Positions 37,301 to 40,300 of a stretch of 64,000 bases of DNA are shown here, in pieces. Position 1 is the stretch's first letter. Each line of letters opens with the position of its first letter. The DNA is from Escherichia coli. GTDB lineage: Bacteria > Pseudomonadota > Gammaproteobacteria > Enterobacterales > Enterobacteriaceae. The position numbers are program-made. The stretch is taken from the NCBI RefSeq assembly GCF_050320075.1, contig NZ_CP190018.1. One strand, written 5' to 3'.

Positions 37301-40300
37301 TAATTAACAGGACAGGGCTTATAATAATAGTTAGCTGGCTGTGTATTAATTTGATGTAATGCATGATGCAGATGCTGAGAAAGCATCTGCATCTCTCGGT
37401 GGTGTTATTTGACCAGCTCAGGTGTTACCTGACTCACCGCATTGGTGTAGTAAGGCGCGCCCCAGCCCGGTTCCGGCCAGAATGCACCATAGCCGTAATC
37501 CCACAGGTTATAGGTGGTATTAACCACTTCTCTCAAATGCCACACCTGGATGCCCTGCATATTCACTTCGAGGAAGTTATACGGGACTTTATTGATAAAG
37601 CCAGGTTGTTCACCCTGAATGGTACCGAGGATGGTAACAAAGTGATTACGATAGTTCACTGGATCAAGGAAGCCGCTTTGTCTGGCGAGCAGTCGGCCCT
37701 GATAGTTGGCTTCAATATCAGGCTTCGCATAGCTATCCAACGGTAATACAGCGATTTCTAACAACGTATCCGTTTTGCCATTGATAACGTTGATAACCTT
37801 CCCACCAAAGCGCGCTTGTTGACCAACATATAACCCCGGCTGGTTATGAACAGCAACAAAACTTTTTTGAATATCAGGTTGGTTATTGCCTTTGATATTT
37901 TGCGGAATTGAACTACATGCGGCAAGCAAAAATGAAAGGCTGAGGATGAGTGCACCTTTTGTCATGTTCATGTTACTATCCTTATCAACAAATATTAAAA
38001 CCATAATAGATATTTCTTTATAGTTTTCATCTGATTCTGAGGCGATATGCCTGATAGTAACGTAAACCTGTCTGATGTTTATATCCCTTCTGTTTAGTTT
38101 AATTCTGTTAATTTTGGGGCGTGACATGAGTATCCATCGCCCCATAAAATAGCCTTTTTTTAAAGGTACATAAAATCTATTTTTATTCAATGCTTATAAA
38201 GCGCTAATAATCAATATTATGGTATTATATTCTGATAATGATTTGATAAGCGAATTCTTTTGCCGGATGGTATTTCTATTTCCACCCCATAATTTATAGT
38301 TTTTTCATCAGGTAGCGATCTCTTTAAATAAGGCGTGCGTGACATTTTTTTTGGGTTAAGTGTCTCGTATTGAAATACTTCGAATTGATATTCAGACATT
38401 TCTGCCCATGTTTGAATTTTATTGTATCGGGAGAGTGTCGTAAAGGCTTTAACTTGCTTATAACATTGTTTTTGGAATTCTTGCTGATATTTTAATATGT
38501 CATTGTATGAAAGATTGGTTATCCTGGCCTCTAAGAATTTAATTATTGTCGAAGCAATTTCCGCTTTTGCTCGTAAAAAGTTGTCATTAATGGTTAATAA
38601 TGTTGAAAATAAACCTTCGATTTGTTTGTCAAGATATTGTTCGTCTTTATATAATTTTGGGGTAGGGTGTTCTTTATGTGAAAAAATAGTGTCACCTAAA
38701 TTTGCGTCAGTGAAATTTATATTAAGTAGATCTTCGAAATAAAACCTTGACAAGGTTAGAACGAACCCGGACAGGTTCTGTCCTGTCATATTGAAATCAA
38801 TAAAGTTGGTTCCGGCAAAGACTTTCATCCTGTTTTTATTTTCACTGTGTTCAATATATAACTTCGTCATTTTTTGATACAGGCTTTGAATATCTTTTAT
38901 ATTAGTCGGTAAGTCAGCTCGTTGTTCAGCATTAAAATTAGTATCTGAAAACATGGTTTGGACACTGAATCTTACTGGTATTCCCTCTTCTACGCTAATT
39001 TTAGTTATGATTGCCTTGTCGGGTTTAGGATTAGCGACAACAATGATTCGACATTCAGAATTTTTATTCTTTTCGTATCTAATGTTATTAATCTGATTAA
39101 GTATTGATTGTGTCTGTTGCGTAAGTGGTGTCGAACTTATCGTTTCAATGTTATTAATAAGACTTACAAGTTGAGCCACAATTTTTGAGTAGTCTGCATT
39201 TGTATATGTAGTGTTCGTGTGGCACGCATTAATTTGTTGAAGTTGGTGTTGCGCTAAATCATATTGATCAGAGGTATATCCTTCTCCAGAGAATGTGGAA
39301 TTAATGGGTTGTTGTTCTTCCCAATTATCGCAAGGCCACTTCGGTGTATCTGGCGTTTTAGCATTATCGGTATTTGTTGTGCAGTTATAAATATCGCCGT
39401 GATATGTATTTATTATACCTGGGGTAAAGTCAATTGACATAAAATTCCTTATTCATCATTTGTTTTATGCTAAGATGTTTAAATTGGATAATTAGAACAG
39501 GAATGGATTTTCTTCTACACACAATAAATGTAATGCGTTATCTCTTCCTGATATAATTACCTTTGATTTCCCTTTTATCTCCACCCGGTAATATTTGTGT
39601 ATAAAAAAAGGGCAGTGATAGTATCGTAAAGGAAAACGTTAACAACTATCAAAAAGCGCTCATTTTAAAAAGTTATGATGTTCACCGATAGTGTGTGAAG
39701 TGATATTTTTGTGATGTTTTAGATGTGTAATAATGAACCAGGTTAAAGTGTATTTAAAAATGTGTTGTATTGGCGACTGAAATCTGCCCTTTAAAAGGGG
39801 GATAGCACTGAAACAAAGAGACATTGCTTCTCCGATAAAATGTCAGAGAAGCATGATTGCGTGGTGATTGTCGATTGATGACTTACTGACGGATCCGTCA
39901 TCATTCTCAAAGCATTAGTTAAGTTATTTGTGATTTTTAAGGATTATCCTATCTATGATTTTCTACTCAGAAGGATAAGGCACTCACAATGCTCCTTATA
40001 GTTTACTGCTGGCATCTATTTAAAATAGCATTTGAGTCAAATAGCCCATCAAGATAGCCATACCTAAGATAACCGTCAGGAATGCAGCTATCATCGGCAT
40101 TCTGAACATTGATTTAAGTAATATCACTTCCGTCAGGCTTGCTCCGGCACTGCCGATGATTAATGCCATTAATGCTCCCAGCCCCATTCCTTTTGTCATC
40201 AGAACAGATGCCAGAGGGATAACCGCCTCTGCCCGGATATACAGCGGAATTCCGACAACGGCGCTCAATGGGATGGCGAAGGGATTATCTGCCCCTGCAT

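Follow-up and report, generated by a model that had tools for sequence, protein, structure and literature searches.

An intact yhiS bordering the acid fitness island in Escherichia coli and the derived, IS5-split state of K-12

The window, by which we mean the whole 64-kb stretch of Escherichia coli DNA analysed here, carries yhiS as a single uninterrupted gene. By a wide measure the best explanation is that this is the intact allele as it stood before insertion of IS5, and that the IS5-split allele of K-12 is the derived one. An intact, pre-insertion yhiS is the ordinary state and is already documented, and the finding itself carries little weight beyond a reminder that K-12 is derived at this locus. 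More useful are the by-products of the analysis, namely the orphan status of YhiS, its deep mosaic alleles and a catalogue of independent inactivations.

Results

The first-pass annotation had described a continuous, AT-rich ORF of 407 aa lacking IS sequence, and this is what we found: one minus-strand frame (Table 1), opening with ATG in the ORF listing. The GC content of the ORF is 33.7% (about 0.32-0.36 in sliding windows), compared with about 0.45-0.53 for the flanking genes on either side, and the remaining five frames across it contain 20-48 stops apiece. yhiS borders the acid fitness island and is flanked by the ars genes and slp, in the order arsRBC - (arsR-like, permease) - yhiS - slp - dctR. 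The same order is found in E. coli CFSAN061763 (NZ_CP042899.1), which matches the window segment at 100% and whose annotation lists the ORF as hypothetical protein WP_000020609.1. Upstream of yhiS a promoter scan returned 12 sites against 10.1 expected from shuffles, and no promoter was assigned; an Rfam scan of 36000-45000 gave no match in or adjoining the gene. The sole Rfam matches in that interval were two AgrB-family sRNAs near dinQ.

Table 1. Positions in the window of yhiS and of features in or beside it
Feature	Position	Strand	Description
yhiS CDS, intact	38217..39440	(-)	407 codons + stop; ortholog of K-12 pseudogene b3504; from the ORF listing and K-12 alignment
AAGGA, Shine-Dalgarno-like	39446..39450	(-)	5 nt before the yhiS ATG; read from the sequence
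Upstream intergenic region, AT-rich	39441..40019	(-)	GC ~0.31-0.35; presumed promoter location
Terminator-like hairpin of the upstream permease gene	39853-39825		inside the 39441..40019 intergenic region
Pentapeptide-repeat-like segment	38676..38825	(-)	aa 206-255; ~10 degenerate repeats, predicted ~2.5 turns of quadrilateral beta-helix
Unoccupied IS5 target TTAG	38696..38699	(-)	ORF nt 742-745; Leu248 codon + first base of Gly249; duplicated around IS5T in K-12
A8 homopolymer	38345..38352	(-)	ORF nt 1089-1096; in frame in the window
Interval absent in the B2 deletion	38148..39052	(-)	905 bp; codons 130-407 + 69 bp downstream; present in the window

The statement that yhiS of K-12 is split by an IS5 copy is borne out by the reference genome. 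NC_000913.3 annotates yhiS (b3504) as a two-piece pseudogene, with fragments at 3651291-3652036 (746 nt) and 3653236-3653713 (478 nt) that sum to 1224 nt, and with IS5T (3652036-3653230, carrying insH11) sitting between them; what K-12 holds is this split pseudogene and not an intact yhiS of the same length. Aligning the window to the K-12 yhiS/insH region, the check that had been proposed, produced two HSPs of 96.7% and 97.1% identity covering ORF nt 1-746 and 742-1224, which meet at the IS5 site with an overlap consisting of TTAGG in the window. At the junction K-12 reads ...CAAATTTAG, then IS5, then TTAG followed by GTGACAC, while the window reads CAAATTTAGGTGACAC and has TTAG once. No excision footprint is present at this position in the window, and the single TTAG therefore marks an unoccupied target site, not a scar. 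A search of the full 64 kb for the IS5 terminus (GGAAGGTGCGAATAAG, at most 2 mismatches) likewise found none.

When IS5 and one copy of TTAG were taken out of the K-12 sequence in silico, an intact 407-aa ORF resulted, with no further lesion. The restored allele and that of the window are separated by 36 substitutions (17 synonymous, 19 nonsynonymous); the window allele is related to the one from which the K-12 allele arose but is not its direct progenitor. In the K-12 lineage, IS5 transposed into TTAG at codon 248/249, duplicating the tetranucleotide and cutting yhiS into the 746-nt and 478-nt pieces. TTAG is consistent with the YTAR target preference of IS5. CTAA and CTAG flanks are described for other IS5 copies of K-12, and BW25113 has 11 copies of the element, yhiS::IS5 among them (PMC11677980).

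The annotation had presumed the uninterrupted state to be ancestral, and the distribution of alleles shows this to be so, the K-12 state being derived and lineage-specific, with three observations in support. First, the K-12 yhiS::IS5 junction occurs in 352 of 5426 complete E. coli genomes, and the five of these that were read by name are laboratory strains. Second, strain H7 (NZ_CP010171.1) carries a near-identical K-12-type yhiS (0 synonymous and 2 nonsynonymous differences) that is uninterrupted. Third, an ortholog of 410 aa lies uninterrupted at this locus in a divergent Escherichia lineage, in which rlmJ and gor are 92-96% identical to those of the window. Overall, yhiS is present at 80% coverage or more in 3997 of the 5426 genomes, and uninterrupted copies were found in both chu+ and chu- backgrounds. 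The locus from the divergent lineage (L011) had been considered as a clean cryptic-clade outgroup and was rejected as mosaic, its left flank being 92-96% and its right flank 98-99.5% identical to the window; it is used here solely as a divergent Escherichia lineage.

Divergence among yhiS alleles is extreme, mosaic and limited to the CDS, with dS reaching 0.30 between alleles compared with about 0.025 for the neighbouring slp. Alleles whose proteins are as little as 79% identical nevertheless have the 407-aa length, alleles at dS 0.3-0.6 retain a frame of 407-410 aa, and the C-terminal 25 residues of the protein are almost invariant. Values of dN/dS fell between 0.17 and 0.64 in 20 of 21 pairs, and thus below 1 in every pair with a defined ratio, and in a sliding-window analysis no segment exceeded a pN/pS of 1 (maximum 0.97, codons 91-150). 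On these comparisons yhiS is a genuine protein-coding gene, subject to weak purifying selection (dN/dS about 0.4), and a frame conserved in this manner is difficult to explain unless the protein has been, and probably still is, selected.

YhiS is a true orphan restricted to Escherichia and Shigella. An exhaustive protein search returned one full-length YhiS cluster at 50% identity among 1.84 billion representatives, and all named homologs are from these two genera and carry the label 'hypothetical protein'. Searches of NCBIfam and PADLOC gave no match, and Pfam gave nothing beyond a pentapeptide match (PF00805, 10.6 bits, E 0.46) below the 20.2-bit gathering threshold. A PDB profile search returned pentapeptide proteins and noise only, among them the Rfr pentapeptide protein 2f3l, which matches aa 202-254 (E 0.0055). 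The non-YhiS matches in the exhaustive search were all bona fide pentapeptide proteins covering only aa ~205-280, and hhalign of aa 203-255 against P0165 gave 91% probability, with 38% of residues identical across 53 columns. The tandem run at aa 206-255 comprises ten pentapeptides that can be aligned to bona fide A(D/N)LXX repeat proteins, and the K-12 IS5 falls in the ninth of these repeats.

AlphaFold2, run on a 13-allele alignment, gave an unusable model (mean pLDDT 35.9, about 30 at aa 206-255; pTM 0.24), and the beta-helix in aa 206-255 is for this reason a prediction from sequence. The module of about ten repeats lies between N- and C-terminal regions that both have no detectable relatives. 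YhiS is a soluble protein in which no membrane segment (KD19 maximum 0.9) and no Sec signal peptide were found; its first 30 residues are enriched in Thr, Ile, Asn and Pro. With low confidence, we suggest that the short beta-helix may serve as a scaffold for protein-protein interaction and that YhiS may be an accessory protein the cell can dispense with. A DNA-mimic role of the Qnr or MfpA kind is not supported, because the repeats are few and degenerate and the Pfam score is sub-threshold, and because the repeats leave about 350 of the 407 residues uncovered.

Discussion

Inactivation of yhiS has arisen separately in B2, K-12, O157 and other lineages, and the gene is often lost. The 905-bp deletion occurs in 1054 complete genomes, including the B2 strains CFT073, Nissle 1917, LF82, E2348/69 and ATCC 25922; at the A8 tract, O157:H7 reads C4A6, one base shorter, and has a 371-aa truncated product; further frameshifts and stops are present in NCTC9113, EC21Z-101, strain 10153 and E2528-C1, and IS1 insertions in SCU-172. 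Even among 29 sampled 'full-coverage' copies, 11 are 1223 or 1226 nt in length. The B2 deletion and the K-12 IS5 together already leave at least about one in four complete genomes with a broken copy, and probably more than half have one. Given so many broken copies, even those copies of yhiS that remain open may be heading for loss.

Taken further, these inactivations, with the K-12 IS5 among them, would fit a gene that is intact here but functionally dead or dying, a horizontally acquired, probably silenced AT-rich relic whose ORF persists only because this strain has so far escaped such a lesion. Its dN/dS of about 0.4 is also relaxed compared with slp (0.03) and dctR (0.07), and deleting or over-expressing the K-12 remnant left the chlorhexidine MIC unchanged, an experiment in which only the pseudogene was tested (PMC8170033). 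We regard this as a tentative reading and, on balance, a doubtful one, as a dying gene would have to be reconciled with dN/dS below 1 wherever the ratio is defined, with frames kept open at high dS and with an almost invariant C-terminus.

A different account of the same instability would make yhiS an Escherichia-specific conflict gene, directed at host, phage or competitor and possibly secreted, whose ancient alleles are kept by diversifying or balancing selection and recombined. We consider this improbable. If true, it would explain why dS reaches 0.3-0.6 beside an invariant slp and why independent knock-outs have arisen in B2, K-12, O157 and other lineages, which would repeatedly discard the gene once it becomes a liability. 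In a narrower form, YhiS would be a secreted or translocated protein that interacts with host or competitor, for example a type III secretion substrate, with arms-race selection as the cause both of its deep, mosaic allelic divergence and of its repeated loss. The low GC of the gene suggests foreign origin, its divergence is confined to the CDS, and the protein has a pentapeptide module, no Sec signal and the N-terminal composition described above, which as an indicator is a heuristic only. We nevertheless judge a translocated effector to be quite unlikely. The PDB profile search (E<=10) matched neither NleL nor SopA nor any other solved effector, no NCBIfam effector model matches, and the exhaustive search recovered only generic repeat proteins. 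E2348/69 and O157:H7, the LEE-positive strains that have been studied best, both have defective yhiS, by the 905-bp deletion and the frameshift respectively, and no segment of the gene has a pN/pS above 1. A literature search on EspX and pentapeptide effectors gave no link to yhiS, and one by O157 locus tags found the gene only under the name 'unknown gene Z4907', next to the acid fitness island (PMC9729726).

The remaining alternatives concern the origin of the open frame. Precise excision of IS elements occurs, at low frequency, and an ancestor of this strain could in principle have carried yhiS::IS5 and later regained the ORF by such an event. Specific support for a revertant is lacking, and given the distribution it is effectively refuted, with a probability we would put close to nil: the site has one TTAG and no footprint, the window is devoid of IS5 ends, the junction is limited to the 352 genomes, of which those read by name are laboratory strains, and chu+ and chu- strains as well as the divergent lineage have uninterrupted copies. 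Finally, although YhiS has no family assignment or confident structure, the idea that its ORF arose by chance in AT-rich intergenic DNA and is no gene at all is vanishingly improbable and is already refuted by the dN/dS comparison and the open-frame statistics, since 407 stop-free codons at this composition have a probability of about 6e-14, the longest open stretch in 2000 shuffles was 192 aa, frame and length are conserved in alleles 13-23% divergent in DNA with dN far below dS, and a Shine-Dalgarno motif stands upstream.

The best-studied strains, K-12, O157:H7, E2348/69, CFT073 and Nissle, all have a broken yhiS, which fits the absence of functional knowledge about the gene, and its study needs an isolate with an intact allele, such as the window strain. 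The copy of IS5 that K-12 has next to the acid fitness island is absent from most natural E. coli. In laboratory evolution of K-12, this copy reportedly mediated the loss of 14 kb from the gad island (bioRxiv 10.1101/063271); the window strain, unlike K-12, has no IS5 copy there.

Comparison with known systems

Like NleL/EspX7, SopA and PipB2, yhiS is a low-GC accessory gene encoding a short pentapeptide module and no Sec signal, which is a resemblance only; the gene lies outside any prophage or pathogenicity island, and the prototype EPEC and EHEC strains have defective copies. With proteins of PF00805, for example Rfr32 (2f3l) and QnrB1 (2xty), YhiS has in common the A(D/N)LXX register at aa 203-255. 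The bona fide pentapeptide proteins that it matched have 5-16 PF00805 stretches of at most 40 residues each, whereas YhiS has about 10 degenerate repeats that would form about 2.5 coils and, unlike PF00805 proteins, most of its length lies outside the repeats and has no relatives.

The closest comparison is with K-12 itself. Its yhiS (b3504, UniProt P37635) shares with that of the window the position between arsC and slp and the 1224-nt total, and has the same 407-aa frame once IS5 is removed. Gene order in K-12 is arsRBC - yhiS::IS5 - slp - dctR, and K-12 lacks the pair of ArsR/SmtB regulator and ArsP_1 permease found upstream of yhiS in the window. At the insertion site itself, the K-12 element is a 1195-bp copy with canonical ends, GGAAGGTGCG...CGCACCTTCC, and a 4-bp TTAG duplication, while the window has the empty target.

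Results

An uninterrupted yhiS

The first-pass annotation described yhiS here as a continuous, AT-rich 407-aa frame free of IS sequence. Both points hold, as the locus is a single ORF of 33.7% GC, compared with ~45-53% in the genes on either side, and a search for IS5 termini across the entire 64-kb window found none. This open frame in AT-rich DNA is not a chance occurrence: 407 stop-free codons have a mononucleotide expectation of ~6e-14, the longest open stretch among shuffles (n=2000) was 192 aa, and the remaining five frames of the region carry 20-48 stops apiece. A mechanically listed 261-aa ORF nearby, 37405-38190 (-), represents slp with its start placed too far upstream, at a TTG.

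Features of the yhiS locus and lesions of yhiS in other genomes (window coordinates unless marked K-12)
Feature	Position	Strand	Details
yhiS ORF	38217..39440	-	407 aa, ATG start; ORF listing
AAGGA Shine-Dalgarno-like motif	5 bases upstream of yhiS		sequence read
Annotated Slp	37405-37971	-	188 aa, start MNMTKGAL
ArsP_1-family permease	40020-41033	-	PF03773, E 6e-53; TPFCSCS cysteine motif
ArsR/SmtB-type HTH regulator	41129-41425	+	98 aa
K-12 yhiS fragment 1	K-12 3651291-3652036		746 nt; NC_000913.3 annotation
K-12 IS5T, carrying insH11	K-12 3652036-3653230		NC_000913.3 annotation
K-12 yhiS fragment 2	K-12 3653236-3653713		478 nt; NC_000913.3 annotation
HSP 1	39759-38695 vs K-12 3650972-3652036		96.7%; BLASTN
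HSP 2	38699-36722 vs K-12 3653231-3655213		97.1%; BLASTN
Single unoccupied TTAG	38696-38699		ORF nt 742-745, Leu248/Gly249; junction sequences
Single 905-bp deletion	38148-39052 missing		1054 complete genomes
IS5 insertion, K-12 type			352 genomes
O157:H7 -1 frameshift	A8 tract, 38345-38352		C3A8 -> C4A6; 371 aa product
Separate frameshift			stop at aa 282; NCTC9113, EC21Z-101
Stop at aa 44			strain 10153
+2 nt insertion			E2528-C1
yhiS remnant flanked by two IS1 copies			SCU-172

The IS5 site in K-12

The statement in the first-pass annotation that IS5 splits yhiS in K-12 proved accurate. MG1655 (NC_000913.3) annotates the gene (b3504) as a two-piece pseudogene with IS5T/insH11 between the pieces, which together come to 1224 nt, the exact length of the window ORF. 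The alignment to the K-12 yhiS/insH region proposed in the first-pass annotation gave two BLASTN HSPs that meet at the IS5 site and overlap in the window at TTAGG. K-12 reads CAAATTTAG-[GGAAGGTGCG...IS5...CGCACCTTCC]-TTAG-GTGACAC across the junction and the window reads CAAATTTAGGTGACAC at the matching site; K-12 therefore carries a 4-bp target duplication, as is typical of IS5, and the window a single, unoccupied TTAG. In-silico removal of IS5 and one TTAG from K-12 gives a 407-aa frame with no other lesion, which indicates that the insertion is recent. Comparison of the junctions shows the window to hold the empty-site, intact allele, K-12 having gained IS5 at TTAG.

Ancestral state and recurrent inactivation

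The yhiS ORF was matched in 5416 of 5426 complete E. coli genomes, with at least 80% of it covered in 3997. A 160-nt probe across the K-12 yhiS/IS5 junction, counted at >=80% coverage, was positive in only 352 of the 5426. Junction-positive or K-12-pattern records read by name were ER1709, XL1-Blue, 3A, g94 and TUM22765; they include known K-12 derivatives, and the g94 and TUM22765 records are labelled laboratory-derived. Strain H7 (NZ_CP010171.1) has a near-K-12 allele (0 synonymous and 2 nonsynonymous differences) that is uninterrupted, and L011, a locus in Logan assembly ERR7420778 treated as a divergent Escherichia lineage, has an uninterrupted 410-aa ortholog with arsC on one side and slp on the other, its rlmJ, gor and ars genes being 92-96% identical to the window. 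Because of this junction distribution, the H7 allele and the L011 ortholog, intact yhiS is ancestral, as had been presumed, and K-12 shows the derived state in carrying IS5. Precise excision of IS5 in the window lineage is rejected on the same distribution of junction and intact alleles.

Inactivation of yhiS arose independently in many lineages (table). Carriers of the 905-bp deletion include the B2 strains CFT073, Nissle 1917, LF82 and E2348/69, together with ABU 83972 and ATCC 25922. In an evenly spaced sample of 40 rows, 11 of the 29 'full-coverage' copies were 1223 or 1226 nt long; as a rough estimate from this sample, yhiS of preserved length is thus retained in only some 45% of complete genomes. 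The window strain does so, whereas the best-studied laboratory and pathogenic strains do not.

Allelic divergence

Nei-Gojobori estimates across seven alleles gave yhiS a dS of up to 0.30 and dN of up to 0.12 (dN/dS ~0.4), against a mean dS of 0.025 (dN/dS 0.03) for slp, 246 bp away, and 0.063 (dN/dS 0.07) for dctR. No 60-codon segment of yhiS had pN/pS >1, the maximum being 0.97 at codons 91-150. Slp (WP_001057453.1) is identical across the strains inspected except in K-12, where slp has one nonsynonymous difference, and in EC21Z-101, which has WP_001511593.1. In a 100-nt sliding comparison divergence was limited to the yhiS CDS and its upstream region, in a pattern varying from strain to strain, and segment-wise protein identities show that YhiS alleles are mosaic. 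Allele class does not track chu background: dS is 0.30 between SMN152SH1 and K-12, both chu-, and 0.07 between the chu+ window and K-12.

Against the L011 allele, dS is 0.56-0.63 for yhiS and 0.025-0.05 for slp. The L011 contig (ERR7420778 contig 8), whose YhiS is 63% identical, is itself mosaic, with rlmJ, gor and arsRBC at 92-96% and slp, dctR, chuS and chuA at 98-99.5% identity to the window; this left/right difference suggests a putative recombination breakpoint at or near yhiS.

Neighbouring loci

Between arsC and yhiS (40020-41425) lies a divergently transcribed permease/regulator pair that is absent from K-12, O157:H7 N8B7-2 and H7 and present in SMN152SH1, 20KM2300, JBEHAAB-19-0176, Jnd12 and SCU-172; the site spans 97 bp in K-12 vs ~1.6 kb in the window. 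The chu heme-uptake locus (chuS 35633-36661, chuA and others) directly follows dctR, where K-12 has yhiD-hdeBA, and the window strain is thus chuA-positive. Two matches to Rfam RF02891 (AgrB), at 43834-43917 (-) and 44068-44151 (-) with 106 and 98 bits, are the agrA/agrB antisense sRNAs adjoining dinQ, as in K-12.

The YhiS protein

All named YhiS homologs are 'hypothetical protein' entries from Escherichia or Shigella. A profile built from 13 alleles, run exhaustively with HMMER on 1.84 billion representatives, recovered one full-length cluster (P0016) and fragments of that protein; every other match was a long bona fide pentapeptide-repeat protein aligned to residues ~205-280 only. A PDB profile search found Rfr32 (2f3l; E 0.0055, aa 202-254), hhalign gave 91% probability for aa 203-255 aligned with a bona fide repeat protein, and NCBIfam and PADLOC searches gave no match. 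Read directly, aa 206-255 form ten pentapeptides in unbroken series, about 2.5 turns of a predicted quadrilateral beta-helix, and the ninth is the position of the K-12 IS5. The Pfam pentapeptide model scores 10.6 bits, under its 20.2-bit threshold, and by Pfam's criterion YhiS is not a family member. No signal peptide or membrane segment was seen (KD19 maximum 0.9), and the AlphaFold2 model, with a mean pLDDT of 35.9, is too poor to establish the fold. These results make YhiS an orphan restricted to Escherichia that carries a short pentapeptide module.

Discussion

The intact yhiS is a correct but ordinary finding, on record in both the K-12 annotation and the literature, where yhiS is the target of one of BW25113's 11 IS5 copies (PMC11677980) and figures as a pseudogene, uncharacterized and broken by an insertion element (PMC8170033). 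In K-12 laboratory evolution, this IS5 copy, which adjoins the acid fitness island, reportedly mediated a 14-kb gad island deletion (bioRxiv 10.1101/063271). The practical consequence of the empty site is that the window strain lacks that copy.

Even between deeply diverged alleles dN/dS remains well below 1, and frame and C-terminus are conserved; from this we infer that yhiS is a genuine protein-coding gene, dispensable and subject to weak purifying selection. Its short predicted beta-helical module would most likely serve as a protein-interaction scaffold, a role we propose tentatively. The sole less ordinary element is the combination, in an orphan gene, of deep mosaic alleles with repeated loss; this leaves some room for reading yhiS as a conflict gene or effector, which we think improbable. 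YhiS has no detectable relationship to pentapeptide type III effectors, and with the Qnr/MfpA-type DNA mimics its only detectable relationship is the repeat itself.
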